This document shows, one piece after another, positions 9,495 through 52,957 of a stretch of 64,000 nt of DNA. Under the pieces are notes generated by a model. That model did not search any database. It was given only the letters and a program-made list of their open reading frames with translations, and had not been told where the DNA came from. The position numbers and the translations under genes are program-made. The stretch comes from a virus: IMG/VR virus record IMGVR_UViG_3300037851_000359, positions 64,001 to 128,000 of that record. The stretch is one strand, 5' to 3'. The stretch's first letter is position 1; each line of letters opens with the position of its first letter.

Positions 9495-10810
9495 TTTATT
9501 CCTTTTAATTCAGTAATATAACATTCTTTTCTCAATCCTTCATCCTTACATAATTTTACTAATTCTTCTATTTTTTTCTTCATTTCATGCAATCGGTCTT
9601 TTAATATATTTATCTCATCTTTTCCAAATTTATAAATAGGAGTTTGAATTATTTTTGAAATGTGTTTATCTTGAATATCATTATCTATTAATAATTTTTC
9701 AATTTCTTTTTTTGATAATTCTGGAAATTTTTTAAATAACGCTTTTTGAATAACAATTAGAAAATCTCTTTCATATTCAAATTTTTCTTTAAGTTCTAAG
9801 TATTGTAATTTAAAGCGTTTAAGATAAAATTCAAACCTATAATCTGTAAATTGTTTAATTATTTGAGAAACCGTCATATTTTTTATTTTACCATCAAATC
9901 CAATAACATTTATATTTTCATTTAATATCGTAAATAATTTAAATTTTTCAATTATTTCAGAATCATTTAATTCAGAATTTAAAATAATATTAAATTCAAA
10001 TTCTTTTTTACAATCATCAGTAAATGATTTAATAATATCTTTTTGTTCAAGATCATCTAGAATTTTTATAAAAGTTTCTCTATTATATCCAATAGGCAAC
10101 TCAGTTATGGTTAAATACTTACCTTCTTTTTTATAACATCCAATAGTTTTCCAAACATTATCGCCAATTTTTTCTATTGAACCATTAAACCCATCAAAAT
10201 ATGGTTTGGGTTCTCTAAACTCTTTATTATTTAAATATTGTAATTGACAATGAATAACATCTTCCAATTTTCGTGGATATATATTACAAGCGAACCCAAC
10301 AGCAATGCCTTGGACAGGATTTAAAATTACGGTAGGAACAATAGGCAGAAAATTTTTAGGTTCTTTTTCAGAATCATCATAATTTGAAATCATTTCAACC
10401 AATGCAGGATCGGTATTCATTATATTAAAAAATGTATCAGATAATTTAACGGAAACATACCGTGCCGCCCCAATACCATTAGATGGACCAGAACATTTTC
10501 CACCAAATGCACCAAACCCATCTAAATAGGTAATATTATTGGCTCCGCTAAATTTTTGGGCCATTAATGAACAAGCATCTTCGACACTAGTAGATGAATG
10601 TGGATGTAAAGACAAAGCAGAACCAGCAACTTTAACAACTTTTACTTTTTCATTTTTATAATACTTATACATCGTCCACAATATTCTTCTATGAACTGGT
10701 TTTAAGCCATCTATAATGCTTGGAATAGCTCTATTTTCTATTACATTGAATGAATATGCTTTGTATTGGGTGTTTATGATATCTGTTATATCAATATTTC
10801 TTATTTCCAT
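9491..10810 (-). CDS. gp52: Type II topoisomerase breakage-reunion subunit (T4 gp52-like)
   Basis: RAIPSIIDGLKPVHRRIL, AARY catalytic Tyr, GIAVGFA, ITELP. Confidence 0.93.
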   Translation of the reverse strand: MEIRNIDITDIINTQYKAYSFNVIENRAIPSIIDGLKPVHRRILWTMYKYYKNEKVKVVKVAGSALSLHPHSSTSVEDACSLMAQKFSGANNITYLDGFGAFGGKCSGPSNGIGAARYVSVKLSDTFFNIMNTDPALVEMISNYDDSEKEPKNFLPIVPTVILNPVQGIAVGFACNIYPRKLEDVIHCQLQYLNNKEFREPKPYFDGFNGSIEKIGDNVWKTIGCYKKEGKYLTITELPIGYNRETFIKILDDLEQKDIIKSFTDDCKKEFEFNIILNSELNDSEIIEKFKLFTILNENINVIGFDGKIKNMTVSQIIKQFTDYRFEFYLKRFKLQYLELKEKFEYERDFLIVIQKALFKKFPELSKKEIEKLLIDNDIQDKHISKIIQTPIYKFGKDEINILKDRLHEMKKKIEELVKLCKDEGLRKECYITELKGIK

Positions 10811-33602: not shown

Positions 33603-34265
33603 ATGTTCAATGATAAAACATTATTTAATAATTCAGGAGTTAAAAAAGAAAGAAAACGTGGAAAAGGTGTATCAAAACCCATTAAAAAAATACATGTAGA
33701 TAATAAAGAATTACGAGAAGAATTAACAAAATTTAGACATACAGTTTTAGAACAAAGGGCCAATAAAGAACAAAAATTAAAAGCATTAAAAACGGATTTA
33801 TCAAAATTAGAAAAAAATTATAAAACCTATAAAAAATTAATAAGACCAAGAAAAGAAGTTATTGAAAAATATTTAAATGATATTCGATCATTAAACGAAC
33901 AACTAGAACAAGTCAGGGATCAAGAATGCAATGGACAAGCATCAGAACGGTTAGGGGAATTATTTTTACAATTAGTCGATAATTTTGCAACAAAAACAAA
34001 CTTTTCAAATTATCCATATTTAGAAGAAATGAAATCCCGCGCTATATTCTTCCTGCTAAAATATAGCCACTCTTACGACATAAATAAACTTAATTCTGTT
34101 GGACAAATACCTTCTGCCTTCTGTTATTGCACACAAATAGTCCATAATGCATTTAGACAAGTTATCAAAAAAGAAAAGAAAAAATTAGCATCTAAAAAAG
34201 AATTTATTGATGATTATTTCCAAAATAATCATTTTAATAGAAAATCTGAAAACCTTATGGGATGA
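33603..34265 (+). CDS. gp55: Late-transcription sigma factor (gp55-like)
   Basis: HVDNKEL, NFSNYPYLEEM, AFCYCTQIVHNAFRQVIKKEKK match gp55 blocks. Confidence 0.88.
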   Translation: MFNDKTLFNNSGVKKERKRGKGVSKPIKKIHVDNKELREELTKFRHTVLEQRANKEQKLKALKTDLSKLEKNYKTYKKLIRPRKEVIEKYLNDIRSLNEQLEQVRDQECNGQASERLGELFLQLVDNFATKTNFSNYPYLEEMKSRAIFFLLKYSHSYDINKLNSVGQIPSAFCYCTQIVHNAFRQVIKKEKKKLASKKEFIDDYFQNNHFNRKSENLMG

Positions 34266-36255
34266 TTGACTTAAAAATACTTTGTAATGTATTATTTTTA
34301 ATATTATTTAATAATAATTTTGCTTTATCTATATTCTTTATATTAATGTTATATATAATCAATGATATATAATCATAATCATTTTCACATTTATAAGAAT
34401 CATAAATAGTATTTATTTGAATGTCAGTTAAATCATCCCATTGAACAGAAGTTTTAATTGTGGCTTTTTCAATTTTAACTGATATTATTATTTCTGTATC
34501 ATTAACTGATGATAATATGCCTGTTATAATACCTCTATTATTAGTATCGAATGATACTTCGGAACTCAATTTAAAATAATTCAATTTATATTGTTTTAAT
34601 TTTTCATAATTAATAACAATTTCTTTAAAATTATTTTTTACAATTTCATTATCTGGATAATTCATAATTGTATTATCTATTATAGTATTACACGTTTGAA
34701 CGTTTAAAGAAAGTAATACAGGCATTATTTTAGAAATAAAATTATTCAATTCAATAGTTTTAAGATGAATCTCATTATTTTTAATTGTTTGTAAATTATA
34801 TTTAATATTATCTATAAGTCCTTTATTTTCTTCCATTTTCGATATATATTTAATATCATCAATTAATTTTAAATTATTTTCTATAATAGAAATGTTTTTA
34901 CTTGTTTTGCAAGTATCAATTAAATTGTTAAAATATTTATTAAAATGGTCATCAACTATTTTGATATAAGATTCTAATGTATCTTTGATATAATCATTCA
35001 TATTTTTATTAATAACTGCAATAGCAGCATCATAATCATGAATATTCAAAAAATTATTGAGATTATCTGTAATGATTTTATGAGAGTCTTTAATAAATTT
35101 TTGTTTATTTAATTCATTATCAGTAAGTTCTTTAATTATATTTGGTAGGATTGAAGAATGTTCATTATATTTTTTAGCAATCAATAATAATTCATTAATT
35201 TTATTAAATTTTATTGGGTTATTAGTTTTAAATATAATGGCGTGTTGAAATAATACTTCATTATTATCATTTTTTTCAGTATTCTCTATTAGTTGAGGAA
35301 CAACTTCAACAACCGGGATTGAATGTGATAAATAAAATTGTATATAACCAATAATCATCAAAAGACTTATAATTATTACCCACAATGATAAGAGATAATA
35401 ATTAAAATTCTTTTTTATTTTTTTATAAGGCAAAAAAATTGTTTTAGAATCTATTTTATCTAAATCATCATATAAATCTTGTCCTGATTGATATCTATCA
35501 TCAGGATTTTTTTGTAATAATTTAATAATAATATTATTAATATTTTTTGATAATTTAGGGTTATGATCTGTAAGATTTTTAGGCAATTCCGTAACATGTT
35601 TAACTAATAAAGCAGATGCTATTTCTGAATCAAAAACCGGGACACCAGTTAGCAATAAATAGAAGGTTGCTCCCAAACTATATAAATCTGATCTGCCATC
35701 AAGTTTTTGTCCTGACGCTTGTTCAGGAGAAACATAGGCTGGTGTGCCCAAGAATTTACCTTCTAAGGTAATATCAGAATCCCCATTTAATGATCTTGCT
35801 AGTCCCAGGTCTGCTAATTTTGGATTGTCGAAATGATCTAAAATAATATTTTCTGGTTTAATATCACGATGGATAATATCTTTTGAATGAATAAAATGTA
35901 ATCCTATAGCCAATTTTTTAAGATATTCAATAGCAACAATTTCAGGAATTGGACCAGTATCTTTAAATACTTGTTTTAATGTTTTTCCAGAAACATACTC
36001 CATTGAAAAATAGTAATAAGGATCAGAAAATCCGCAATCATATACAGATACTATATAAGGATGATTAATTTTCCCCGCAGATTTAGATTCTCGTAAAAAA
36101 CGTTTAACGAATTGTTCATCTTTTGAAAATTTTGGAGGAAGTATTTTTAATGCTACAAAACGATCCAATGATAATTGTTTGGCTTTAAAGACGGCACCCA
36201 TACCGCCTTGGCCTAGTTTTTCGATAATTTTATAGCCTGGGATAGTTAAATGCAT
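34255..36255 (-). CDS. Hanks-type Ser/Thr protein kinase (PknB-like) with a TM helix and long C-terminal domain
   Basis: LGQGGMGAVF, VALK, HRDIKPEN, DLG, GTPAYVSPEQ, SDLYSLG; TM LLSLWVIIISLLMIIGYI. Start ATG 36255. Confidence 0.92.
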   Translation of the reverse strand: MHLTIPGYKIIEKLGQGGMGAVFKAKQLSLDRFVALKILPPKFSKDEQFVKRFLRESKSAGKINHPYIVSVYDCGFSDPYYYFSMEYVSGKTLKQVFKDTGPIPEIVAIEYLKKLAIGLHFIHSKDIIHRDIKPENIILDHFDNPKLADLGLARSLNGDSDITLEGKFLGTPAYVSPEQASGQKLDGRSDLYSLGATFYLLLTGVPVFDSEIASALLVKHVTELPKNLTDHNPKLSKNINNIIIKLLQKNPDDRYQSGQDLYDDLDKIDSKTIFLPYKKIKKNFNYYLLSLWVIIISLLMIIGYIQFYLSHSIPVVEVVPQLIENTEKNDNNEVLFQHAIIFKTNNPIKFNKINELLLIAKKYNEHSSILPNIIKELTDNELNKQKFIKDSHKIITDNLNNFLNIHDYDAAIAVINKNMNDYIKDTLESYIKIVDDHFNKYFNNLIDTCKTSKNISIIENNLKLIDDIKYISKMEENKGLIDNIKYNLQTIKNNEIHLKTIELNNFISKIMPVLLSLNVQTCNTIIDNTIMNYPDNEIVKNNFKEIVINYEKLKQYKLNYFKLSSEVSFDTNNRGIITGILSSVNDTEIIISVKIEKATIKTSVQWDDLTDIQINTIYDSYKCENDYDYISLIIYNINIKNIDKAKLLLNNIKNNTLQSIFKSIIP

Positions 36256-36262
36256 AGCCAAT

Positions 36263-36326: not shown

Positions 36327-38339
36327 TCATTTTTTAATTTTTCTTAATAATTGATTTGACAATTTTTTCATTTGTTCTAAGATAAGATTTTCATCCAAAG
36401 GTTTTTGGCGATGTTCGTATTTTTTTGTTGAGCAAGAATAAAAGTTTTCAGATAAGAATTTAGCGCATTCTTTTAATGTTGCATAAGGTCCGATTGCCTT
36501 TTTTCTTGCACTATTTCGGTCGCACATTGAGCAACCTTCGGATTCATTTAAAGGATCAATTTGATTTTCTATTTTTTCTGCAATCAAATGACGATTTAAA
36601 TTTGGGGCAGATTCATTTAATACTAACGGAACATCAACTTTAAACATTTCATTTAATCTTGATTTAGTGGTTCCAATTCTTGAATAAACTGGAGCGATAC
36701 CTTGGGTGGCATTAATAGCTTGGTTTGTCGTACCGTCCGCAACTCCTGGCCCAGCTACAGATGCAGTTCCGCCTTCTTCAGTAATTGGGTCTAATGATTT
36801 GGAAGCGTCTTGTATTGCATCTTCTTCAGAATCAAAGGGTTGTGAGGTTTTGATAGGATTTCCATTATCATCTAATTTTTTCCATCCAAATTTTCCTGAT
36901 TCAAGTTGATATACAGAAATATTATTATTTATTAACATTGATTTTGGATCATTGGTGTCTTCTGCTAAAACAGGAGGATAATCAGCTTTCCATAATTCCA
37001 TCATCCGTTCGACTTCAATTGGATTTGTAAATAATTGCCAAACATCCCCATATTGATCTTTGACTGTATCAGAGGGGGTATATTCAGGTCCAAATATTTC
37101 AGGATTGACATATACGCCTTCTTTTCTTATTTTAATAAGACCATCTTTTTCCATATCAACAAACATTTTATGAACATCTTTAACTCTCTTGTCTAAATAA
37201 TTCTGTTCTGCTTGATCTATTTCATCATGATTAGTAGGATCATCATCTATTAATTCCTCTTCATTTTCATCCCTAACCTGATTAATAGATTTAGGGGGAG
37301 TAATATCATCCATAGAAATAAATTTTTGTCTCACTTCTTCTAACGCTTCCATTTCTGATTCAAATGGGATTGATGATTGATTAATTATATCATCAGTTGC
37401 TCCGTATTGAAACCATCCCCATTTTCCAAGATTATTTTGTTTAATTGAAATCTTTTTTTCAATTAATTGTTTTTCATCATCTTCTGTAATAACACCTTTT
37501 GGTTTAAATGAAGTATCATCAGCATCCAAATTATCATAATGATTATCTAAATCATTATAATTAACATCATCAGATTCTACATCAGGATTAAAATGTATAG
37601 GGGTTTTATTTATATTTTCTAAATCTTCTAAAAGATTTTTAAAATGTTTTCTTAATAAGTCGAAATTATCTTGTTTAACATCTTCATGTGATTCAGAGGC
37701 AACCTTAACATTATTTTGTTTATATTTATCAAACATTTTTGGGTCCATAGTTGTTTGACATTCTGAAACTTGACAAACTTTAGGATCAGCTTTAAAATTC
37801 AATCCTTTTTCTTCCCATTGTGATTCATTATCAGCTTGAGCTACGAATTGATCTGCTGCTAATTTATCATCAAATGGTCCATGTTTAATATTGGGATCTT
37901 TTGTAGAAACCACATAGAATCCTAAATCATCTTCTATGATTTTCCATTCTCCATCTTCCATTAATGGTTGATTTGCAATTTTTTGTTGCTGTTGTTGAGA
38001 ATTTTTAAATCCTTTAGCTTGCAATTTAGAAATTTCTTCTTCTTTTTTAGCTATATCCTGTTTTAATTGAGCAATTTTTTGAGCAATATTCGGATCAATA
38101 GCAATATCTTCTTTTAAATCTTTAGGAGTATTAAATGTTTCTTTGATGCTCTTATCAGGGGTTTCTTTAACTTCTTTAATATCATGAGTTTGTTTAAGAG
38201 GTTTTTCTTTAGGAGTATCAAATACAACATCTTCTTTTAATACTCTTTTAACATATCCATACCCTTCAAGAGTAACATATTTAGAATTTTTATTATCATC
38301 TTTGACATTAAACCATTGATTTTGATATTTAGCTTTCAT
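36327..38339 (-). CDS. Acidic late protein with repeated YegP/DUF1508-like modules; putative head-internal protein
   Basis: GKWGW..PFESEMEA and GKFGW..PFDSEEDA repeats; many (I/L)xE sites; TATAAATA at 38363-38370. Confidence 0.55.
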   Translation of the reverse strand: MKAKYQNQWFNVKDDNKNSKYVTLEGYGYVKRVLKEDVVFDTPKEKPLKQTHDIKEVKETPDKSIKETFNTPKDLKEDIAIDPNIAQKIAQLKQDIAKKEEEISKLQAKGFKNSQQQQQKIANQPLMEDGEWKIIEDDLGFYVVSTKDPNIKHGPFDDKLAADQFVAQADNESQWEEKGLNFKADPKVCQVSECQTTMDPKMFDKYKQNNVKVASESHEDVKQDNFDLLRKHFKNLLEDLENINKTPIHFNPDVESDDVNYNDLDNHYDNLDADDTSFKPKGVITEDDEKQLIEKKISIKQNNLGKWGWFQYGATDDIINQSSIPFESEMEALEEVRQKFISMDDITPPKSINQVRDENEEELIDDDPTNHDEIDQAEQNYLDKRVKDVHKMFVDMEKDGLIKIRKEGVYVNPEIFGPEYTPSDTVKDQYGDVWQLFTNPIEVERMMELWKADYPPVLAEDTNDPKSMLINNNISVYQLESGKFGWKKLDDNGNPIKTSQPFDSEEDAIQDASKSLDPITEEGGTASVAGPGVADGTTNQAINATQGIAPVYSRIGTTKSRLNEMFKVDVPLVLNESAPNLNRHLIAEKIENQIDPLNESEGCSMCDRNSARKKAIGPYATLKECAKFLSENFYSCSTKKYEHRQKPLDENLILEQMKKLSNQLLRKIKK

Positions 38340-40421: not shown

Positions 40422-40928
40422 ATGTATACCGAACAAGAATTAGCAAAATATGAAAATAAAGATATGGTTAAAAATTATGTAGAAAAGATGGGGGAATTAT
40501 CAAAGAAATTACATGCTAAATTTGCTGATCATAGACAATTTATAGAAAATTTATTAAATCCTATTGAACGATCAAATATTATTGGGGAATCTAATAAGAA
40601 TATTGATTTTTATCATAAAATCAATACCAGATTAGCAGAAGAACGTATTAAATTACACGAATATAAAGATAAATCCACTGAAATTGAAAGTCAAATATAC
40701 GATTATTTTAAAAATCATTCTGATATAAGTTCACAATTAAAATCCGAAACAGCAATAACACATTATGTAGAAGGGCATCCTTGCCATAGAGCTATAAATA
40801 ATATCGTCGTAATACAACAAACTCTTGTCCAATATTTAGAAACTGCCTTAAATTCAGTAAGGGATAGAGGTTATGCAATTAAAAATATTATTGAAGCTAT
40901 TAAGATTGAGTTGGGAATAACTTCATGA
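40422..40928 (+). CDS. uvsY: Recombination mediator UvsY-like
   Basis: Helical protein with C-terminal YLETALNSVRDRGYAIKNIIE; directly upstream of uvsW. Confidence 0.75.
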   Translation: MYTEQELAKYENKDMVKNYVEKMGELSKKLHAKFADHRQFIENLLNPIERSNIIGESNKNIDFYHKINTRLAEERIKLHEYKDKSTEIESQIYDYFKNHSDISSQLKSETAITHYVEGHPCHRAINNIVVIQQTLVQYLETALNSVRDRGYAIKNIIEAIKIELGITS

Positions 40929-42376
40929 ATTATTGGGTTAAGATAGAAAAAATTAATAACATTAACGCAATATTAAAAACTAATTATCCTTCATTAATAG
41001 AAATGTTATATAATTATTTATCAGCATATGCTAATAACTATAAATTTATGCCAAAATATAAAATGAAAATTTGGGATGGTAAAATTTATTTTTTTAATAA
41101 AATGGGGGTATTTCCTATTGGACTGTTAAAATATGTTTATAAATTTTTAGAGTCAGAACCAAATTTATCAATTGAAATTGACCCACTGTTATTAAAAACC
41201 GAAGATTCATTTGAAGATTTTGAAGATATAACGGAATTGTGGCTTAATAAAGAAATAATACCAAGACCCTATCAAATAGATGGAGCATTAAAAGGATTAA
41301 TTTACAAAAGATGCACCTTAGAACATGCTACAGCATCCGGCAAATCGTTAACCATTGCAATGATAATTATGTATCATTACATTAAAAAACTTCATCAAAA
41401 ATTTGTTGTTCTTGTTCCAAATGTAAGTTTAGTACACCAAATGTTTAATGACTTTATATCATATGGGGTTCCTACTGATATTATCGGAAAGTTTTATGAA
41501 GAACAACGTGATACTGATAAATGTATTACTATTTCAACTTGGCAATCCTTGCAAGATTTTCCAGATTTCGCAAAAAATTTCGATTTTTTTATATGCGATG
41601 AAGTTCATCAAATAAAAGGAAATACTGTTAAAACTGTAGCTAATAGCATAATTAATGCAGATTATAGAATCGGTTTAACTGGATCAATGCCTGACAATAA
41701 AGCGGATTGTTGGTCAATTGAAGGCGCAATCGGAACCGTTGTCGATATTGTAAAATTAAAACAATTACAAGAAGGTAAATATATATCAGATATTGTTATC
41801 AATATTATTTATTTACTCCATAAGCAAGATATTCTGGACAAATTAAAATTAGTTACGGATTTCAAATTAGAACAAGATTTTCTTGAACAATATCAACCAA
41901 GAAATAAAGTTATTAAATTTATCACGGAAAAACATATTCAAAAAAATCATAATGTATTGGTGTTAGCAGAACATAAAGACCATATTAAAGAACTTTATAA
42001 TTTAATATCACAAATAAAAGATGCACAAGTATTTGTAGTTACTGGAGATATGGATTCAATAGAACGAGAAAAAACAAGACAATATGTTAATAATAATAAA
42101 AATTGTGTAATAATTGCAACTCTTGGTGTATTTTCTACTGGTATTTCAATTAATAGACTACATACAGTTATTTTTACCGTTATAGGAAAATCAAAAATAA
42201 GAATTTTGCAATCAATTGGTCGCGGATTAAGATTGCATAAAGAAAAAAAACATCTTTTCTTGTATGATATTGCTGATGACACCCATTTTTCTAAAACACA
42301 TCTTAAAGAAAGAATTAAATTATACATAAATGCGGAGTTTGATATTAAAACCACAGAAATTAATTTGGATAAATAA
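40925..42376 (+). CDS. uvsW: SF2 DNA helicase UvsW
   Basis: WDGKI, PRPYQ, ATASGKS, DEVH, GLTGS, FSTGISI, QSIGRGLR. Confidence 0.93.
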   Translation: MNYWVKIEKINNINAILKTNYPSLIEMLYNYLSAYANNYKFMPKYKMKIWDGKIYFFNKMGVFPIGLLKYVYKFLESEPNLSIEIDPLLLKTEDSFEDFEDITELWLNKEIIPRPYQIDGALKGLIYKRCTLEHATASGKSLTIAMIIMYHYIKKLHQKFVVLVPNVSLVHQMFNDFISYGVPTDIIGKFYEEQRDTDKCITISTWQSLQDFPDFAKNFDFFICDEVHQIKGNTVKTVANSIINADYRIGLTGSMPDNKADCWSIEGAIGTVVDIVKLKQLQEGKYISDIVINIIYLLHKQDILDKLKLVTDFKLEQDFLEQYQPRNKVIKFITEKHIQKNHNVLVLAEHKDHIKELYNLISQIKDAQVFVVTGDMDSIEREKTRQYVNNNKNCVIIATLGVFSTGISINRLHTVIFTVIGKSKIRILQSIGRGLRLHKEKKHLFLYDIADDTHFSKTHLKERIKLYINAEFDIKTTEINLDK

Positions 42377-42378
42377 AC

Positions 42379-44283
42379 ATGGCAATTTTTAAAAATACAA
42401 CCAATTCTAATATATATGTTTCTATTAATGGAACTAGAAAAGAAATAGCACCAGGAAAAACGGTATACGGACCAGATTCATTATCATCTATTCAAGGATT
42501 AACTCTCTTAAATACAGCAAAACCAACAAAAATTTTAGGACCAATTAATCAAAATTTATCAGTTGCTAATCCAAAGTCTCCAGATAATTTAAATAATCTA
42601 ATTTCAAATTATAAATCTTCTCAGCAATCAAACTTTTCCCAACAAATAAATGAAACTATTGATTATTTAACAAAAATAAAAAATATTGGTCATAATCCTT
42701 CAGTGTCTATCGCAATATTAACAAAAGATAAATATGATCTTATTAAAAATTGTATTTTTTCAATTATCGAAAAAGTTAAATATCGTCCAATAACAATTTG
42801 TGTGTGTGATACAGGATCTTCAGAACAAAAAGTTCTTGACTTATATAAATCATTACCAGAAACATTATCACATAATAATATTTCATATAAATTTATTCAG
42901 TTACCATATTATCAATTTAGTGAAAATTATAATACTATTTCAGAATATATTGATACCGATTATTTTTTAATACAAAATAATGATACCGTTGCAATTAATG
43001 ATTATATTACCGAAATGATGAATATTGCTATGATTCCCCACGTTGGATCTGTTGGATGTAGAATGTTTTATCCAGATGGAAGAATACAACATGACGGTCA
43101 ATTTATATTTCAGCCAAATGGTTTTCATATGACTGCGACAGCAGGGCATCTTAACCTTACTGTTAGACCTGATCAATTACCAAATAAAGAACATGAAATA
43201 AAATTAGTGGATGGTAATACTGCCGCAGGATGCTTAATAAGAACAGAAGATTACAAAAAACTTAAAGGATTTGATACTAAATTTAAAGATATTTTTCAAG
43301 ATGTTGATTTAATGATTAGAATACCACAAGTATTAAATAAATTTAATTATTGTAATAGACAATCTCATATTATTCATTTAGATAATGCTTCAAGAGTTGC
43401 AAATAGTAAAATTGATCCTAAAAGATTGCAACAAATGAGAGAAGATACATTATATTTAAAACATAAATGCGATACATTTAATTGGAAAAAGAAAATTCCT
43501 GAACAAGTAGATTTTAGTATTATTACAACAGTTTATAATTTAGATAATTATAAAGATTTATTAAAATCTTTAGAAAATCAAAATGGAAATCATACTATTG
43601 AAATTATTCCAATTCCAAATTTTTATAACCATTTCGATAATATGTATAAAGCTCTTAATTGTGGAATTGAAGTAAGTAATGGAAAACAATTAATATTTGC
43701 ACATGATGATATTGTGGTATCACCAGAATTTTTAAATCAAATTAAATATAATATACAATTATTAAATAATGCTAATATACAATATGGAGTATTGGGACCA
43801 GCAGGAGTATTATTAGATCAACATAAATTTTCATATTATTTATTAGATGAGAATTTAAACAAAATTGAAATCCCTGGAAATAATATTAATAATACTTCTT
43901 TAAATGAAGTTCATTCTTTAGATGAAATGTGTCTTATAATTAATAAATATTCAGGATTAAAATTTAATGATAGACAATTATCTGGATTCCATTTTTATGG
44001 AATAAATTTATGTCTTAATGCTAAATTACATGGATTGAGAAATTATTCAATTAATTGTTTTTGTCATCATAAATCAGATGGTAATAAAAATTTAAATTCT
44101 AAAGAAAAATTTGAATCATTTGTAGACCAAGCCTTAAAATTTACACATTTTGCAAAAAATATTGGAGTTACCAATTGGAGGTCTACTACGACACATTGTA
44201 CAAAAGGACATTTAGTTATTTATGCTATTCCTCCTATTATTAAAGAATCTCTTAATAAAGATACCTTGGTTATAAAAATATAG
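42379..44283 (+). CDS. Double GT2-family glycosyltransferase
   Basis: VSIAILT..DTGS..NNDT..QDVDL domain, then FSIIT..NCG..HDD..FHFYG domain. Confidence 0.85.
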   Translation: MAIFKNTTNSNIYVSINGTRKEIAPGKTVYGPDSLSSIQGLTLLNTAKPTKILGPINQNLSVANPKSPDNLNNLISNYKSSQQSNFSQQINETIDYLTKIKNIGHNPSVSIAILTKDKYDLIKNCIFSIIEKVKYRPITICVCDTGSSEQKVLDLYKSLPETLSHNNISYKFIQLPYYQFSENYNTISEYIDTDYFLIQNNDTVAINDYITEMMNIAMIPHVGSVGCRMFYPDGRIQHDGQFIFQPNGFHMTATAGHLNLTVRPDQLPNKEHEIKLVDGNTAAGCLIRTEDYKKLKGFDTKFKDIFQDVDLMIRIPQVLNKFNYCNRQSHIIHLDNASRVANSKIDPKRLQQMREDTLYLKHKCDTFNWKKKIPEQVDFSIITTVYNLDNYKDLLKSLENQNGNHTIEIIPIPNFYNHFDNMYKALNCGIEVSNGKQLIFAHDDIVVSPEFLNQIKYNIQLLNNANIQYGVLGPAGVLLDQHKFSYYLLDENLNKIEIPGNNINNTSLNEVHSLDEMCLIINKYSGLKFNDRQLSGFHFYGINLCLNAKLHGLRNYSINCFCHHKSDGNKNLNSKEKFESFVDQALKFTHFAKNIGVTNWRSTTTHCTKGHLVIYAIPPIIKESLNKDTLVIKI

Positions 44284-44311
44284 TTGATTTTTTAAAAAGG
44301 TTCGCTATAAT
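44284..44311 (+). promoter_or_regulatory. Sigma70-type promoter driving a non-coding transcript
   Basis: TTGATT-N16-TATAAT with no sizeable downstream ORF. Confidence 0.65.
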
Positions 44312-44317
44312 CAAAAA

Positions 44318-44610
44318 AGACCTTGATGCTTAGGTCTATAAAGTCAGCATCAAACCCTTTTTTATAGGCATTCCTCTTGACGCTTATAAAAATTGTACAA
44401 GGTAGGTTTCCTAATTCCTTCCTTAGTGTGTTAAACACTTAAAATAGTCTGGAAGCAGGATTAAGAATATTAGGAGGGGGCTATAAGAGTTACTAATTAT
44501 CTCTTATAGTTTTAGCGTCTACAGTCCAGGTGCAATTCCTTGGCAGGGGATAGACGACAAATTAGAAAACTTATTATTTTTATACCCTCATTTGGGGGTT
44601 AGGGGGGTAT
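44318..44610 (+). ncRNA. Candidate structured ncRNA (~290 nt), family unassigned
   Basis: Stems 44323-30/44346-53, 44359-69/44382-92, 44403-16/44560-73 (closing a multiloop), 44481-89/44501-09, 44516-21/44551-56 enclosing T-loop-like GGTGCAATTCC, and 44582-89/44603-10; more GC-rich than its flanks. Confidence 0.55.
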
Positions 44611-44617
44611 TGTTTAT

Positions 44618-44775
44618 ATTATTGAAATTATTATTAATTATTGAAATTATTATTAATTATTGAAATTATTATTAATTATTGAAATTATTATTAATTATTG
44701 AAATTATTATTAATTATTGAAATTATTATTAATTATTGAAATTATTATTAATTATTGAAATTATTATTAATTATT
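44618..44775. repeat. Perfect 19-bp tandem repeat x8 (ATTATTGAAATTATTATTA) plus a partial copy
   Basis: The single G recurs at 44624, 44643, ... 44757 (period 19). Confidence 0.95.
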
Positions 44776-44778
44776 TCT

Positions 44779-44857
44779 TAAAAATAAAATATTTAAATAA
44801 CTTATGTAAAAATAAAATATTTAAATAACTTATGTAAAAATAAAATATTTAAATAAC
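44779..44857. repeat. 28-bp tandem repeat, ~2.8 copies (TAAAAATAAAATATTTAAATAACTTATG)
   Basis: C recurs at 44801, 44829 and 44857. Confidence 0.9.
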
Positions 44858-44878
44858 AACACTAAAATTAAGTTATAG

Positions 44879-44953
44879 GTCAAGGCGAAGAACGAAGTCG
44901 TAGCCTTGACAAGGTTTTTGGTAATGAAGCGTAGCGCAATGGACAAAAACCTT
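44879..44953. other. Two adjacent hairpins with GNA-triloop motifs
   Basis: GTCAAGGC/GCCTTGAC (44879-44910) enclosing ACGAAGT; AAGGTTTTTG/CAAAAACCTT (44911-44953) enclosing GCGTAGC. Confidence 0.75.
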
Positions 44954-44982
44954 AAACTATTGAAAATAAAACATTTAAAGTA

Positions 44983-45558
44983 TCAAAAACTTCTTTTAGC
45001 AACAGAACCAACAGCAATTCCACCAAAAGTTCCAGTATTGACATGAGATAACTTTATATCTTTAAAGGTTTCAGATTCCCAAGTTTTTCTTTCTTTAATA
45101 TTAATTGGATTGATTTCATTTTGATTAAATATAAGAATATTTTCAAACCATGGAATTTCATTAAAATAATTTTTTAATATTTGAATTGAGTTATTATCAA
45201 TAATTCCATTATTAGATAATATTAATTTATCATTTCCTTTTTTATTTCCATTTGGATGTGGAATCTGATTGGCATTATCTTTAATTTTAATAATTCCAAT
45301 TAATTTTAAATCTTTTGAATATTTAGAATTAGGTTCTATTATGAAATCCCATCCCATATTATCTGCGGGATTGATACAATTTGGAAATTCCCCATAATCA
45401 AATGGAATAACATTTGGATTATTCCATTTTTTAGTACTTCCTTTATATTCTTGAATATTTATTTCAGGCATTTTAGAATTACATTGTTCGATAATTTCAT
45501 TTAAATTATAGAATCTTTTTATTGATTCAGTTAAAAAATATTGTTTAAATGTTTTCAT
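44983..45558 (-). CDS. Divergent family I inorganic pyrophosphatase-like protein with a T4-like capsid-targeting N-terminus
   Basis: IPFDYGEFP..PADNMGWDFII..GIIKIKD..NDKLI resembles the sPPase signature; starts MKTFKQYFLTES. Confidence 0.55.
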   Translation of the reverse strand: MKTFKQYFLTESIKRFYNLNEIIEQCNSKMPEINIQEYKGSTKKWNNPNVIPFDYGEFPNCINPADNMGWDFIIEPNSKYSKDLKLIGIIKIKDNANQIPHPNGNKKGNDKLILSNNGIIDNNSIQILKNYFNEIPWFENILIFNQNEINPINIKERKTWESETFKDIKLSHVNTGTFGGIAVGSVAKRSF

Positions 45559-46735: not shown

Positions 46736-49700
46736 ATGGGTTATACAAGAGACGAAGCTATACAAGCGTCAACCAAATACTTTAATGGCGATGAATTGGC
46801 CGCAAAAGTATTCGTTGATAAATATTCACTCAAAAATAATAATGATGAATATTTAGAATTAACTCCTGATGATATGCATAAACGTCTTGCTAAAGAATTT
46901 GCAAGAATTGAACAAAAATACCCCAACCCATTGTCAGAACAAGAAATATATCATTTTTTCAAAAATTTTAAATATATTGTTCCTCAAGGTTCGCCAATGT
47001 CAGCTATTGGAAATAATCATTTTATTCAATCTACTTCAAATTGTTTTGTTTTGGAATCCCCAAGTGATTCATATGGTGGAATTTTGAAAACCGATCAAGA
47101 ACAAGCACAATTAATGAAGCGGCGTGGTGGTGTTGGTTTTGATATTTCAACTATTCGACCAAAAGGATTGCCCACAAAAAATGCCGCTAAAACAACGGAT
47201 GGTATTGCTCTATTTATGGAACGATTTAGCAATACAACCCGTGAAGTTGCCCAAGGAGGTCGGCGTGGTGCCTTATTAATGTCAATATCTGTTCATCACC
47301 CAGAAATTGAAACTTTTATTAATATTAAAAAAGATAAAACAAAGGTTACTGGTGCAAATATTTCAGTTAAAGTTACTGATGAATTTATGAATGCGGTTAA
47401 AAATAATTCAGATTATGAACAACGCTGGCCAATTAATTCAAAAAATCCTTCAATAATTAAAAAAGAAAATGCTAAAAAAATATGGGATATGTTAATATCT
47501 GCTGCTTGGGAAAGTGCGGAACCTGGAATTCTATTTTGGGATACTGCTCAAAAATATACCCCATCAGATATTTATAAAGATTTTGGGTTTGAATCGGTTT
47601 CGACAAATCCTTGTTTAGTTGGAGATACTAAAGTTTATGTTGCTGATGGAAGAGGCGAAGTTGCTATTAAAGAACTTGCTGAAATTGGAAATGATGTTGA
47701 TGTATTTTGTTACGATAATAATGGAAAAATAGTAATTCGAAAAATGAGAAATCCAAGAATCACTGGATATGATCAAAAAATATTTAAAGTTACTTTTGAT
47801 GATGGAAATTCCATTGAATGTACCGAAAATCATAAATTGAGAATGATTGATGGTACTTACAAAGAAATTAAAAATATTCAAATTGGGGAACAAGTTGGTA
47901 TTATAACTAAATATGAAGAATCCATAAATAACACTATCACTAAAACGCCAAAAAATGGTAAAGATTATTATTGGTTAAAAAATGGAAATAATACTATATG
48001 TGAGCATCGACTTATTGCAAGTCATAATAACGGAAACAATTTAGATTATAATATGGTAGTTCATCATAAAGATTATAATACAAAAAACAATTGCCCAGAC
48101 AATTTACAGATAATGTCAAAAAAAGAGCATGATTTACTTCATGCTCAGGATATGATTGGTGATAATAATCCAATGAGAAGAGCAAAAACTGAATGGTCTG
48201 CGGAAAAATGGGAACAATATTCAAAAAATATGTCAGCATCAGTTTCCGGCAAAAAAAATGGACGATATTGTGGAAAAGATAATAATGAATTAAAGAGACA
48301 TGCTATTATACTAACTAAATTATTGAATAGAAGATTTACTTATATGGAATGGAATGAATATGCGGAAAAAAATAATTTACCAAAAAATTTCTCAAAATAC
48401 AGAAAACAAGAATTTGGAAATGTAATAGAATTTTCTAAAATGGCTGCCAAAGAGTGCGGTATTGAATATATAGATGAAGATCCTCGACTTGTAACAACTC
48501 TTAACAAAGCTATTGAACAAGGGTATGAATCTATAATAGAAAATAATGAAGTATTAGTTAAACGTATTTGTGAAAGTTGCAAGACTGAATATTTTATTAA
48601 TTATAGTCAGCGGGAATCCGCGTATTGTTCTCCGAAATGTGTTAAAGGAAATAATGCTTTTATTACTCTTAATAATGATCCTAAATTTCAAGAAAATCGA
48701 CAAAGAAAAGTACGGGAATCATATTCAGAAAAAATGAAAAATATAAAAAGAAAACAGTTAGATTTGTACACAAAACTTAAATTTGAAATGGGTGAAGAAC
48801 CATTATTAAAAGATTTTTATAAAAAATGTCAGGAAATAAATCTTTCATGTAGATTCAAAACAAAATTTGGATTTGCATCATATAAAGAATTACAACAAGA
48901 AGCATCATTACATAATCATCGAATTTCAAAAATTGAATACCTTAGAAATGATACAGTTTACAATGGCACTGTAGATGAATATCATAATTTTTTCATAGGT
49001 GGATTTGAAGGCATCCACACAAACGGAAAACGTAAGTCTTGTTATATCAATAATTTGAATTGCGGTGAGATAGTTTTGTCAAACGCGGATTCTTGCCGCT
49101 TAATTTCTATGAATCTTTTAAATTTTGTTGATAATCCTTTTACTGAAAAGGCTTTATATAATTTTAAGAATTTTTCTGATGCTGTTAATATTGCTCAACG
49201 ATTAATGGATGATATGATTGATCTTGAATTAGAAAAAGTTAATTTAATAATCAATAAAATAAAATCAGATCCAGAATCAGAAGATGTTAAAAGCATTGAA
49301 TTAAAATTATGGGAAAATATTAAAAATGCTTGTCAAAATGGTCGTCGTACTGGTCTTGGTATAACTGCTCTAGGAGACACTATTGCTGCTCTTGGGGTAA
49401 AATATGGTTCAGAAGAATCAATAAAAATAACAGAAGAAATATATAAAACTTTAGCAATAAATTCTTATAAATCATCAATTATTATGGCAAAAGAACGGGG
49501 ATCATTCCCAATTTGGAATTTAGAATTAGAAAAAAAACATCCATTCTTAGATCGTATTTTAAATGAATTAGATGCTGATACTATTAAAATATATAAACAA
49601 TATGGCCGTAGAAATATTGCAAATACAACAACTGCTCCGACTGGATCAGTTTCTATTATGACACAAACCACATCAGGAATTGAGCCTGCATTCCTGGTTA

Positions 49701-50641
49701 AATATACCAGACGGAAAAAGATTTCTGAAAATGAAAAACATATTAAACCAGACTTTGTTGACGCAATGGGTGATAAATGGCAAGAGTTTGAAGTATATCA
49801 TCATCAATTTAAAAAATGGATGGAAATAACTGGAAAAAATAAAATCGAAGAATCCCCTTATCATAACGCAATGTCAAATGATATTAATTGGGTTAATGGG
49901 GTTAAAATTCAATCGGTTGCTCAAAAATGGATAGATCATTCAATAAGTAAAACATGTTGTCTTCCAAATAGTGTAACTAAAGAACAAGTTGCAGAAGTCT
50001 ATATGGCTGCTTGGGAACATAAATGCAAAGGATTTACTGTTTATCGTGACGGTTGCAGGGATGGGGTTCTTGTATCAACTACTAAAAAAGAAACTTCAAA
50101 TAAAATTTTAAAAACCAATGCTCCAAAACGTCCTAAAGAATTACCTTGTGATATTCATCATGTTAAAATTGTTAAAAAATTAGATAAGATTCGTTCATTA
50201 GAATATATTGTTATTGTTGGATTATTAAATGATGATCCTTATGAAATTTTTGTCTTTGAAAATAGTGCTTTGGATAAAAAATATACTAATGCAATTCTTG
50301 TTAAAAAATCAAGAGGAAAATATTCTATAAAGTTGGACGAAAACGTTGAAATTGAAGATATTATGAAGAATCAAACTGAAGAAGAGGAAATGATTACGAG
50401 GCTTGCTTCTACTGCTTTACGGCATGGTACTGATATTTCATTCTTAGTTCATCAATTAGAAAAAGTTAAAGGTGATCATATTGGATCATTTACTAAAGTT
50501 ATGGGTAGAACCCTCAAGAAATATATTAAAGATGGTACTAAAATATCTGGAAGTAAATGCCCCGAATGCGGACAAGAATCATTAATTCGTGAAAATGGTT
50601 GCACTATTTGTAAAAATTGTGGCAATTCTAAATGCGGTTAG
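46736..50641 (+). CDS. nrdJ: Class II (B12-dependent) ribonucleotide reductase with an intein
   Basis: PQGSP, SNCFV, RGGVG, GRRGALL, EPG, TNP|C...N|CGEI, RRTGLG, TAPTGS, SISKT, KGFTVYRDG, C-terminal Zn ribbon. Confidence 0.92.
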   Translation: MGYTRDEAIQASTKYFNGDELAAKVFVDKYSLKNNNDEYLELTPDDMHKRLAKEFARIEQKYPNPLSEQEIYHFFKNFKYIVPQGSPMSAIGNNHFIQSTSNCFVLESPSDSYGGILKTDQEQAQLMKRRGGVGFDISTIRPKGLPTKNAAKTTDGIALFMERFSNTTREVAQGGRRGALLMSISVHHPEIETFINIKKDKTKVTGANISVKVTDEFMNAVKNNSDYEQRWPINSKNPSIIKKENAKKIWDMLISAAWESAEPGILFWDTAQKYTPSDIYKDFGFESVSTNPCLVGDTKVYVADGRGEVAIKELAEIGNDVDVFCYDNNGKIVIRKMRNPRITGYDQKIFKVTFDDGNSIECTENHKLRMIDGTYKEIKNIQIGEQVGIITKYEESINNTITKTPKNGKDYYWLKNGNNTICEHRLIASHNNGNNLDYNMVVHHKDYNTKNNCPDNLQIMSKKEHDLLHAQDMIGDNNPMRRAKTEWSAEKWEQYSKNMSASVSGKKNGRYCGKDNNELKRHAIILTKLLNRRFTYMEWNEYAEKNNLPKNFSKYRKQEFGNVIEFSKMAAKECGIEYIDEDPRLVTTLNKAIEQGYESIIENNEVLVKRICESCKTEYFINYSQRESAYCSPKCVKGNNAFITLNNDPKFQENRQRKVRESYSEKMKNIKRKQLDLYTKLKFEMGEEPLLKDFYKKCQEINLSCRFKTKFGFASYKELQQEASLHNHRISKIEYLRNDTVYNGTVDEYHNFFIGGFEGIHTNGKRKSCYINNLNCGEIVLSNADSCRLISMNLLNFVDNPFTEKALYNFKNFSDAVNIAQRLMDDMIDLELEKVNLIINKIKSDPESEDVKSIELKLWENIKNACQNGRRTGLGITALGDTIAALGVKYGSEESIKITEEIYKTLAINSYKSSIIMAKERGSFPIWNLELEKKHPFLDRILNELDADTIKIYKQYGRRNIANTTTAPTGSVSIMTQTTSGIEPAFLVKYTRRKKISENEKHIKPDFVDAMGDKWQEFEVYHHQFKKWMEITGKNKIEESPYHNAMSNDINWVNGVKIQSVAQKWIDHSISKTCCLPNSVTKEQVAEVYMAAWEHKCKGFTVYRDGCRDGVLVSTTKKETSNKILKTNAPKRPKELPCDIHHVKIVKKLDKIRSLEYIVIVGLLNDDPYEIFVFENSALDKKYTNAILVKKSRGKYSIKLDENVEIEDIMKNQTEEEEMITRLASTALRHGTDISFLVHQLEKVKGDHIGSFTKVMGRTLKKYIKDGTKISGSKCPECGQESLIRENGCTICKNCGNSKCG
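47612..49060 (+). mobile_element. Cis intein (483 aa) with an HNH endonuclease at the RNR NPCGE active site
   Basis: CLVGDT start, TENH block B, EHRLIA..VHHKDYNTKNNCPDNL HNH, VYNGTVDEYHNF block F, ends NLN|C. Confidence 0.92.
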
Positions 50642-50740: not shown

Positions 50741-52504
50741 ATGAAATTAGAGATAAAAGAAATAGAGATTAAGAATTTTTTTAGTGTTGGTTCAAAACCC
50801 ATTAAAATAATTTATGAACCAGGATTACATGCTGTTACAGGTAGAGTTATAGGACAACCCACGAATAATGGTGTTGGTAAAAGTGCTATTTTTATTGATT
50901 CATTAATTTTTGGATTCTTTGGAAAAAGTGTCCGTGGATTAACCCAATCTGGAATTGTTAATAGTATTAATGAAAAAGATTGTTATGTTCATATAAAATT
51001 TATTTTAGATAATATACCCTATCGTATTGAACGGGGATTAAAACCAAATTATTTATACCTTATCAATGAAACTGAAGATAATAAAGAACATAATGCTAAG
51101 AAATTGACTCAAGATGATATTAATAATTTATTAAATATTAATTATACAAGTTTTATTAATATGATTACATTAAATATTAACTATTCACAATCATTTTTCA
51201 AAATGAAAGCTGAACAAAAGAGAGATTTTTTAGAAAATTTATTAAATATATCAATATATGCAAAAATGTTTGATAATTGTAAAGAGGATTTTAATGATTT
51301 AAAACATTCAATAAATACTCAAGAAGCAGTTTTAAAAACAGAAATACAAGCATATAAATCTAAATTGGATTCTTATAAAAAAATTGATGAATTAAAACAA
51401 CAATTTGAACAACAACAAAAATTATCTATAGAAAAAATAACTAATGATATTAAAAAATTAGAAGATCAATTAAATTCAATTAATATTTCAGATGTTAATT
51501 ATGATGATGTTCTAGATAATTTAAATAATGATATAAATGAACAGGTAAGAATTATTAATGTATTAAATATAAATATTTCAAATAATAAAAAAGAAATTAC
51601 TAACAATGATAATTTAATTAAAAAGTTGACGGCATCCCCTGTATGTTCAGAATGTGGAACCCCAACAACTTCAGATCATGTTACAAGTCATATTAAATCA
51701 TTACAAGATAATAATTTAGAGTTAAAAAATAAAAATATTGAAGATCAAAATAAAATTGACTCTCATACTGTTAATAAAACTAAATTAACAACCGAATTTT
51801 ATACTATTAAAGATAAAAAGGATAAAAAGAATAATCAAGTAACTCAAAAAAATATTATTGTAAATAATATTAATAATTTAAAAAATAATTTAAAAAATGA
51901 ACAGAATAAATCATTTAATATGTCAATAATATCCAAAGATGAATTAATAACTATGAAATCTGCCATAGAAGAACGTAAGAAAACTTATGATGATCAAAAG
52001 AAACAATTTAAAATATCTGAATATATGAAAGATGTATTAGGTGATAAAGGGGTTAAAAAATTTGTTATTTCCAAAATATTGCCATTATTAAACAAGAAAA
52101 TGAATCATCATTTAGCTATTTTAAAAGCCCATTATACTATAAAATTTGATAATGAATTAAATGAAGTTATTAAATCAAGAAATCGTGATGTATTTTGTTA
52201 TGAAAACTTCTCTGCTGGTGAACAAAAAAGAATTGATTTGGCTTGGATGTTTACTATATTAGATATTTCAAAATTAAGAAATTCTGTAGAATGTAATGTA
52301 TTGATTATGGATGAAATTTTAGATTCTTCTATGTGTGCTAATGGTATTGATTCATTAATGAATTACATTAAATTGGACTTTAAAACTGTTAATAAAGACA
52401 TGTGTATTTATGTTATAACTCATAAAAATGAAATAAATAATGAAATGTTTGATAATGTTATAAAACTTAAAAAAGAAAATCACTTTACTAAATTGGACGT
52501 TTAA
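50741..52504 (+). CDS. gp46: Rad50/SbcC-like recombination ATPase (gp46)
   Basis: IKNFFSVG, NGVGKS, CSECG hook, FSAGEQKRIDLA, IMDE, VITH. Confidence 0.93.
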   Translation: MKLEIKEIEIKNFFSVGSKPIKIIYEPGLHAVTGRVIGQPTNNGVGKSAIFIDSLIFGFFGKSVRGLTQSGIVNSINEKDCYVHIKFILDNIPYRIERGLKPNYLYLINETEDNKEHNAKKLTQDDINNLLNINYTSFINMITLNINYSQSFFKMKAEQKRDFLENLLNISIYAKMFDNCKEDFNDLKHSINTQEAVLKTEIQAYKSKLDSYKKIDELKQQFEQQQKLSIEKITNDIKKLEDQLNSINISDVNYDDVLDNLNNDINEQVRIINVLNINISNNKKEITNNDNLIKKLTASPVCSECGTPTTSDHVTSHIKSLQDNNLELKNKNIEDQNKIDSHTVNKTKLTTEFYTIKDKKDKKNNQVTQKNIIVNNINNLKNNLKNEQNKSFNMSIISKDELITMKSAIEERKKTYDDQKKQFKISEYMKDVLGDKGVKKFVISKILPLLNKKMNHHLAILKAHYTIKFDNELNEVIKSRNRDVFCYENFSAGEQKRIDLAWMFTILDISKLRNSVECNVLIMDEILDSSMCANGIDSLMNYIKLDFKTVNKDMCIYVITHKNEINNEMFDNVIKLKKENHFTKLDV

Positions 52505-52740
52505 TGAAAAATCTAAAAACTATTATTGTTAATGATGTATTTTATTCTTCTGAAAGTTTTGTTGTTAGCTGTTGTTATAACTATATTTATATTCCATTTT
52601 TTAATATTTTTTCTTCTACTGTTAAGCGAACTATTAAAAGTAATGTTTGGGAATCAGTTAGAACAAAATTAATTCACCGGCATTTTTCTAATAATAATTT
52701 AGATTTTAATGCTTTGCAACAATATAAGGAGAATTTATGA
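52504..52740 (+). CDS. Small hypothetical protein
   Basis: Coupled ORF ending NALQQYKENL. Confidence 0.5.
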   Translation: MKNLKTIIVNDVFYSSESFVVSCCYNYIYIPFFNIFSSTVKRTIKSNVWESVRTKLIHRHFSNNNLDFNALQQYKENL

Positions 52741-52957
52741 AAACTATATATCATCATATTCAAGGAAAACAGGAATCCAAATGTTATAACAATTTTTTAG
52801 CGATTGATTATTACTATTTTGTTATAAGCGACTATATATCAAGAAAAGTTAATATACCTCTTTTGGTTATGCGGTCACATAATTTAAATTCTATGTATTC
52901 AAATTTTAGATTAATTAAATATAATGCTTTACAACAATATAAGGAGAATTTATGAAA
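52707..52957 (+). repeat. 36-bp direct repeat (35/36 identical) flanking a 215-bp gene unit
   Basis: TAATGCTTT[G/A]CAACAATATAAGGAGAATTTATGAAA at 52707-52742 and 52922-52957. Confidence 0.9.
52737..52955 (+). CDS. Small hypothetical protein
   Basis: AAGGAG SD; ends NALQQYKENL. Confidence 0.5.
   Translation: MKTIYHHIQGKQESKCYNNFLAIDYYYFVISDYISRKVNIPLLVMRSHNLNSMYSNFRLIKYNALQQYKENL

Follow-up and report, generated by a model that had tools for sequence, protein, structure and literature searches.

The window analysed here is a stretch of 64,000 nucleotides, bases 64001-128000 of a 136,758-base IMG/VR virus record (G000) with an estimated completeness of 53%. Its G+C content is ~25%, and its genes point to a distant T4-like myovirus, uncultured, whose UvsW is only 33-36% identical to those of the nearest named phages. 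In this study, we characterized a 699-bp gene-free gap of the window, at 44284-44982 (window coordinates, unless another record is named). The left border of the gap is a two-domain, family-2 glycosyltransferase gene (634 aa, 42379-44283, plus strand; Pfam Glycos_transf_2 1.3e-12, Glyco_tranf_2_5 2.7e-07), and the right border is a converging gene encoding 191 aa (44983-45558, minus strand). The 191-aa protein itself has no family match; homologues of it show a weak similarity to NT5C (5'-nucleotidase), with E values of 2.8e-4 and 3.3e-4 that fall under the Pfam cut-off. Among relatives, these homologues vary between 160 and 561 aa (L226:736-2421, plus strand; L203:8968-10113, minus strand), and the weak NT5C similarity is found in the long forms. 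Between the two genes lie, from left to right, a promoter-like site, a predicted structured RNA ending in a pair of G-runs, an extremely A+T-rich repeat tract and two hairpins. An earlier sequence-only reading had taken this series for a candidate RNA-primed replication origin. Our results suggest that it is, first of all, a conserved locus for a non-coding RNA.

The promoter-like site, of sigma-70 type, begins one base past the stop codon of the glycosyltransferase. It occupies 44284-44311 on the plus strand (TTGATT-16-TATAAT) and matches the consensus at 10/12 positions. No open reading frame (ORF) of at least 60 aa is present in 44284-44982; the only small ones are a minus-strand ORF of 48 aa (44292-44438) and three others of 30-46 aa. 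A sigma-70 promoter-like site that leads into no ORF, as first described, is indeed found. Promoter-like sites are frequent in the AT-rich DNA of the window (35 found against 18.4 expected), so that the consensus match alone says nothing on whether the promoter fires.

Downstream of this site, we predict a structured non-coding transcript of ~300 nt (44312-44617, plus strand). This segment is richer in G+C than the window, 36% (63 G and 48 C) versus ~25%. The plus strand of 44312-44625 folds at -84.5 kcal/mol (z = -2.68), a value equalled by one of 100 shuffles, in agreement with the ~290 nt of nested stems in the original description. The minus strand of the same segment folds at -66.7 kcal/mol (z = -2.40). 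The first hairpin of the predicted RNA, AGACCT...AGGTCT at 44318-44337, is followed on the minus strand by TTTTTT and is terminator-like for leftward transcription; it is also the only terminator-like site in 43500-45500 (minus strand, 44337-44318). At the 3' end of the RNA lies the G5-TTA-G6 tract GGGGGTTAGGGGGG (44594-44607, plus strand), which pairs with a C/U-rich segment at 44372-44381 in the minimum free energy (MFE) fold. Three of the record's runs of at least five G are found within 131 nt here.

To the right of the RNA, two perfect tandem arrays follow each other. The first comprises 8.3 copies of the 19-bp unit ATTATTGAAATTATTATTA (44618-44775; Tandem Repeats Finder (TRF) score 316, 100% identity), and the second 2.8 copies of an A/T-rich 28-bp unit (44779-44857; TRF score 158, 100% identity). 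The near-pure A/T repeats that had been noticed here, given as 8x19 and ~3x28 bp, are therefore real, and they hold the first and third repeat scores of the whole record. The repeats contain many -10-like sites. The record's lowest-G+C 150-bp window also lies in this tract, with 4.7% G+C against 11.3% for the next one, and the tract is the most easily melted DNA of the record. Other high-scoring tandem repeats occur at 8280-8387 of the G000 record, outside the window (48 bp x 2.2), and in the related record G001 (129 bp x 2.0 and 84 bp x 3.5, at 1-256 and 36533-36827).

Two hairpins close the series. Hairpin 1 (44879-44910) has an 8-bp stem, in which GTCAAGGC (44879-44886) pairs with GCCTTGAC (44903-44910), and a 16-nt loop carrying ACGAAGT and CGTAG. 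It is followed on the plus strand by AAGGTTTTTGG, a terminator-like arrangement that could stop rightward transcripts near 44920. Hairpin 2 (44911-44953) has a 10-bp stem formed by AAGGTTTTTG (44911-44920) and CAAAAACCTT (44944-44953), with GCGTAGC and the 19-nt motif AATGAAGCGTAGCGCAATG (44923-44941) in its 23-nt loop.

Relatives of this locus were not easily found. Single-protein locus searches of IMG/VR with the glycosyltransferase and with UvsW gave no relatives, and a search for UvsY homologues gave one only. A UvsW homologue search, on the other hand, led to a clade at 46-53% identity (alignment A1, 30 rows, without P0017, P0018 and P0031). A UvsW peptide block specific to this clade, chosen because none of 80 other T4-like loci matched it, was back-translated and scanned, which yielded seven IMG/VR stretches; the glycosyltransferase alignment yielded ten JGI loci. 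After removal of duplicates, ten loci were compared: the window, G001 (331,849 bases, 92% complete), G003, G004 (198,442 bases, 84% complete), G005, G007, L237, L239, L240 and L241. L242 and L243 were left out, having no sequence downstream of the glycosyltransferase, as were G002, with no glycosyltransferase match, and G006, with a 28% partial match elsewhere.

All ten loci carry the uvsY-uvsW-glycosyltransferase block, followed by a gene-free gap of 499-699 bp. The glycosyltransferase, 34-56% identical to that of the window, is the kept left border in all relatives, and the right border is a converging homologue of the 191-aa gene (31-46% identical) in eight of the loci; in L240 and L241, a converging SbcC-like gene is found instead. 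An equivalent promoter-like site, with at least 10/12 matches, starts -3 to +24 nt from the glycosyltransferase stop in 8/10 loci (not in G004 and L237). G+C is mostly higher in the first 300-400 nt of the gaps than in the tract after, and a 50-nt window of at most 14% G+C begins 312-460 nt into the gap in seven loci. Moreover, several relatives have direct repeats of unrelated sequence in their AT tract. The module order of promoter, ~300 nt of G+C-richer sequence and AT-rich, repeat-prone tract, whose conservation had been proposed as a check, thus recurs at the syntenic place. This conservation of layout indicates that the locus is functional and argues for a real RNA locus. We also observed that L240, a more distant relative, contains in the same slot (L240:2875-3486), after a sigma-70-type promoter, 18 copies of AGTTACT/AGTAACT in 612 bp, within ~3.5 copies of a ~63-bp repeat, an array that looks like a set of protein-binding sites.

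In five of the ten gaps (G007, G003, G001, G004 and L237) we identified an RNA of ~300-325 nt, hereafter type A, with copies at L226:2619-2943 (minus strand), L227:2611-2935 (minus), L203:7707-8031 (plus), L206:4044-4335 (minus) and L237:4946-5256 (plus). Type A RNAs have a core of five covarying helices and share blocks such as these two, CAUAAG(G/A)C in a hairpin loop and a GUCACAUA box. A model built from G007 alone and five hand-drawn helices (R1) matched G003 with 88.9 bits, G001 with 43.5 bits and G004 with 14.1 bits. Of the 27 pairs in the resulting four-sequence alignment, 14 have changes in both partners, with 98.9% of the cells being paired; none of 500 shuffles matches this, and no slid register of the alignment comes close in pairing. 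A second model (R2), rebuilt from this alignment, found L237, which is outside the training set, at the syntenic place (21.7 bits, E 0.009). When G001 and G004 were scanned whole, R2 gave one significant copy in each. A weak additional match in G001, at ~49.1 kb, was rejected, as it lies within an apparent coding stretch and leaves the third helix unpaired. In a further 89 loci, 907 kb in total and with 80 other T4-like uvsW loci among them, R2 gave no match at E <= 1. The conserved G-U pairs place the type A RNA on the glycosyltransferase strand.

Rfam families gave no match to G007, G003 and G005 at E <= 1, and RF02932 gave none in G000, G001, G003, G004, G005 and G007. Type A is a covariation-supported RNA family absent from Rfam. 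We further propose that its 5' end pairs with the loop of helix 2 to form a pseudoknot, for which all five sequences have complementary segments (ACAACU/AGUUGU, CAACUCA/UGAGUUG, AUCCG/CGGAU, UUGUUA/UAACAA and UUGUCC/GGACAA). A loop-shuffle test of this pairing was significant in two of the five sequences only (11 and 4 of 1000), and in G007 and L237 the best match in the test was a different segment.

The window's own RNA matches neither the type A family nor any relative, so its fold is only predicted. R2, run with filters off at E <= 10, gave no match at 44284-44982, its 7.9-9.4-bit matches in the window lying elsewhere, and R3, a model derived from the fold predicted for the window, had its best match, E 0.3, at an unrelated place. 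Rfam 15 at gathering thresholds gave no match in the whole window; the best in 44200-45050 was RmaA, on the minus strand, whose 21.3 bits (E 0.46) fall short of the 57-bit cut-off. Neither a tRNA nor a tmRNA was detected. At the nucleotide level, blastn of 44250-45000 against 50,697 phage records gave no match, and blastn of the 699-bp stretch against the whole records of eight relatives gave short A/T-rich matches only. An 18-mer from the window RNA had no match in IMG/VR, and pairwise local alignment gave no link between this RNA and the relatives. Pairwise alignment of the gaps is insensitive here, because it misses true family members, G004 and L237: only G003-G007 (z 54) and G001 with each of these (z ~4) were significant. 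Only short words, ACAAGGTAGG and GCA(A)TTCCTTG, are common to the window and G005, and a window helix, AGCGTCTA...TAGACGA, looks by eye like the third helix of type A. The slot is filled by unrelated sequence in G005, L239, L240 and L241 as well. The window's RNA is thus an orphan sequence.

Public sequencing data offer one hint on this orphan. Contigs of four DNA runs cover parts of 43900-44617, none of them spanning 44552-44617, and there was no RNA run among the public sequencing runs matching the stretch. One contig of 151 nt, from runs X3 and X4 (equal in size and possibly one data set), covers 44401-44551 with a single difference; the glycosyltransferase 3' end there shows 10 differences in 151 nt. 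The fold proposed for the window therefore draws on the prediction itself, on base composition, on the promoter's conserved position and on this weak hint.

Based on these data, the reading that we favour, to which we assign a probability of roughly 50%, is that of a gene for a structured RNA, transcribed from the promoter, with an AT-rich boundary zone and terminal hairpins after it. The description of the locus as a conserved non-coding transcription unit between two converging genes has, in our view, an even chance of being correct. Host RNA polymerase would start at the sigma-70-type promoter past the glycosyltransferase stop, presumably early in infection, and the product would be a folded RNA of ~300 nt without protein, orphan in sequence in this phage. 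In half of the relatives, the same slot holds another RNA family of similar length, which is supported by covariation and probably pseudoknotted. The AT tract, with perfect repeats expanded by slippage, would serve as a boundary zone toward the converging gene. Both hairpins would lie within this zone, hairpin 1 and its U-run being the likely stop for rightward transcripts, while read-through transcripts could also open the AT tract. Because the relatives' family keeps its loop sequences invariant, the RNA probably acts as RNA, through a bound partner or a tertiary fold, rather than only as a primer.

Several observations weigh against this interpretation. The covariation count comes from only four sequences, in an alignment fitted to the model. 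The window RNA has no detectable homologue that could lend covariation to its predicted helices, its folding z-score is modest and that of the minus strand is nearly equal (-2.40). We found no clear intrinsic terminator on the plus strand between the predicted RNA and the AT tract. Moreover, unrelated sequence replaces the RNA in half of the relatives, which would be surprising if the RNA had one set task, and the extreme AT tract and the unrelated repeat arrays of relatives look like more than a passive spacer.

The main alternative is a transcription-primed origin of the T4 oriE/oriF kind. Here, an early promoter would drive a folded pre-primer RNA, its purine- and G-rich 3' end would run into the AT tract as unwinding element, and a persistent R-loop would provide the leading-strand primer. 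An RNA-DNA G-quadruplex at G5-TTA-G6 would possibly help the R-loop, which UvsW would later remove. We regard this origin as plausible but less likely than not; it would be compatible with another job of the RNA. In its favour, the locus adjoins uvsY (40422-40928, plus strand; Pfam UvsY 5.3e-07, PHROG UvsY-like 5.5e-11) and uvsW (40925-42376, plus strand; Pfam UvsW_N 2.6e-10, PHROG DNA helicase 1.7e-81). In T4, oriF lies in uvsY. In the ORF map, gene direction flips at ~40.35-40.42 kb, with leftward genes to the left and mostly rightward genes to the right, and uvsY and uvsW sit just right of this divergent switch. Both the change near 40.4 kb and the two neighbouring genes, as originally pointed out, are thus evident from the ORF map and the Pfam and PHROG matches.

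The comparison with T4 relies on a review of T4 replication (PMC3016281). In this review, T4 oriF and oriG each combine a promoter with an unwinding element that is rich in A+T; an R-loop forms there, and specific sequences are not required. OriE depends on an early promoter and has 12-nt direct repeats of undefined role, all three origins lie near transcription and skew switches, and UvsW unwinds origin R-loops (PMC3016281). The window resembles oriF, or ori(uvsY), and oriG in that its promoter is directed into easily unwound A+T-rich DNA, with uvsY, uvsW and a switch in direction and skew nearby; it resembles oriE in its early-type promoter and its direct-repeat array near a transcription switch (PMC3016281). 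Moreover, the promoter points into the record's lowest-G+C 150 bp, an AT-rich tract lies at a similar distance into the gap in 7/10 loci, and relatives, too, have repeats at the locus, though of unrelated sequence.

There are also differences from T4. The minimal T4 origin spans ~100 bp, in which the promoter is immediately followed by the unwinding element, and the oriF and oriG promoters are MotA-dependent middle promoters, whereas that of the window is of a plain sigma-70 type (PMC3016281). In the window, ~300 nt separate the promoter at 44284-44311 from the lowest-G+C 150 bp, a spacing unlike that of T4, and the predicted folded RNA occupies this interval. The repeats of oriE are evenly spaced 12-mers (PMC3016281), whereas the 19/28-bp repeats of the window are perfect, abutting and near-pure A/T. 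Perfect abutting repeats are typical of recent slippage rather than of spaced iterons, and the repeat sequences are wholly unlike between relatives. The claim that such a design lacks a precedent among T4-like phages must accordingly be narrowed: promoter and unwinding element are known from oriF and oriG and repeats from oriE, but a ~300-nt folded RNA between promoter and AT tract has none in T4 in the account of that review (PMC3016281). Our literature searches listed no paper on this module.

GC skew, which had been suggested as a check on the origin, gives a mixed answer. The cumulative minimum lies at ~103-104 kb of the G000 record, with the element at 108.3 kb, at 106 kb in G001 (element at 112.0 kb) and at 191 kb in G004 (element at 187.6-188.1 kb). 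A minimum is therefore near in 3/3 genomes, but 4-6 kb away from the element, where transcription diverges at uvsY. Since gene direction changes at this very place, the skew minimum does not tell replication apart from transcription. In the window's own record, no DNA melts more easily than the AT tract, but its syntenic counterparts are not the lowest in G+C in their genomes, ranking sixth in G001 and outside the ten lowest in G004.

The G-runs were part of the origin proposal. The tract is present at 44594-44607, but two adjacent G-runs near the 3' end were seen, by reading, only in the window and G005, that is, in 2/10 loci, and hence the pair is not conserved. In IMG/VR, the 14-mer GGGGGTTAGGGGGG has at least 120 chance matches, none of them alike beyond the motif. 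The GNA hairpins fare likewise. Both exist, with CGAAG, CGTAG and GCGTAGC in their loops, but CGAAG/CGTAG hairpins occur in only five of the ten loci, once inverted (L237). G004, G005 and L239 have ACGAAGT(G) motifs at the syntenic locus, as does L237 in inverted form, and these motifs show no genome-wide enrichment. The CGAAG/CGTAG-bearing hairpins are specific to this locus: both copies of ACGAAGTG in the 198 kb of G004 lie here, which speaks for the origin. In the record, CGNAG mini-hairpins show no enrichment, with 46 counted versus 76 in shuffles. Finally, no initiator-like gene adjoins the repeats, and invariant loops, as in the type A RNA, are not expected of a mere primer. What stands of the proposed R-loop architecture is a recurring layout, a most meltable AT tract and a skew minimum nearby; the G-runs and hairpins are not general, and the window RNA is an orphan.

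Outside T4, the closest parallels are origins with long pre-primers. ColE1 RNA II and the mitochondrial LSP/CSB II primer both have a promoter, a folded transcript of several hundred nt and G-runs near the hybrid point. The window shares promoter, folded transcript and G-runs with them, and its two G-runs would fit the hybrid-quadruplex idea of CSB II. It differs in that the DNA downstream is G-poor and in the poor conservation of the G-runs, and there is no sequence or family relationship. In ColE1-type origins, the pre-primer RNA is processed by RNase H and controlled by an antisense RNA; in the window, only the minus-strand terminator-like hairpin at 44337-44318 hints at leftward transcription. 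An iteron-type origin has several direct repeats and a cognate initiator gene nearby; the repeats of the window number 8.3 x 19 bp, and none of the ten neighbouring proteins scanned, two of which (191 and 341 aa) are without family, has a Rep-like domain. Viewed as an RNA, the module recalls GOLLD and ROOL, large structured phage non-coding RNAs with Rfam families and of unknown function. Like these, it is phage-borne and would be promoter-driven, several hundred nt long and folded, with a probable pseudoknot in type A, but no Rfam family matches the window or the three relatives searched.

We consider it unlikely that the gap is just a hypervariable spacer, a decayed or replaced cassette in which promoter and fold arose by chance, the repeats by neutral slippage and the hairpins are ordinary terminators. 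Such a spacer would agree with a sequence that is unalignable to all relatives, with the abundance of promoter-like sites and with modest folding z-scores on both strands. It could also account for the 19-nt motif of hairpin 2 as the mark of a gene remnant. This motif is also found in L239 and, nearly so, in G005, and its degenerate form, AATGAARCGWAGYGMAATG, has 40 exact matches in IMG/VR. Twelve of these correspond to codons 1-6 (MKRSEM; MKRS[EA]M) in a family of small phage proteins of 57-85 aa, MKRSEMI...GMLPP...WEPED, several of them with a ribosome-binding site before, as judged by eye. The remaining matches include stubs of 8-18 codons in non-coding, repeat-rich regions of other, unrelated phages. 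Examples are found at L282:9811-10041 and 10470-10712, L278:354-590, L279:9306-9329 and L302:8092-8115. We also considered the motif as an antisense regulator, which is unsupported, as no MKRSEMI...GMLPP member is present in G000, G001 or G004. Against a mere spacer stand the promoter at the same position in 8/10 loci, the similar length that the G+C-richer segment keeps before the AT tract, and the covariation-supported RNA that holds the slot in 5/10 loci. In addition, 44401-44551 is identical at 150/151 positions in another sample, versus 141/151 in the adjacent coding DNA.

Least probable of all is a minus-strand product, either a leftward RNA from the AT tract to 44337-44318, maybe antisense as RNA I is to RNA II in ColE1, or an extended 3' untranslated region belonging to the converging gene: the sole terminator-like site with its T6 tail, the minus-strand z of -2.40 and the many -10-like sites in the repeats are in its favour, but the plus strand folds 18 kcal/mol better, the relatives' RNA lies on the glycosyltransferase strand with conserved G-U pairs, the position-conserved promoter is on the plus strand, and promoter matches in a pure A/T repeat are expected from composition.

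Genes for an SbcC-like protein, a Hanks-type kinase and an intein-containing large subunit of ribonucleotide reductase are also found in the window. The reductase gene (46736-50641) is split by the intein, which has an HNH endonuclease domain (Intein_splicing 8.2e-13, HNH_3 8.6e-08). The kinase, a 668-aa protein at 34255-36261 on the minus strand, contains a complete Ser/Thr kinase domain of eukaryote type (Pkinase 3.5e-54), an unusual feature for a T4-like phage. A second gene-free gap, of ~450 bp (52504-52952), separates the SbcC-like gene from the rightward gene that comes next.

To our knowledge, the replication origins of T4-like phages outside T4 are essentially unmapped, and in T4 only a promoter and an unwinding element are known to be needed. 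If true, a module with a folded RNA between promoter and unwinding tract would be a candidate structured origin transcript. In its boldest form, this idea would have a clade of large T4-like phages start replication beside uvsY/uvsW by a folded pre-primer of ColE1 or mitochondrial style, made from an early promoter and ~300 nt long, with promoter position, RNA length and AT tract maintained, the RNA itself swapped between lineages and G5-TTA-G6 anchoring the hybrid in this phage, a scenario that we think rather unlikely. That sister phages have unrelated folded RNAs in the same slot makes one ask which selective force favours an RNA of this size there. Such gaps merit annotation as RNA loci and should not be left empty.

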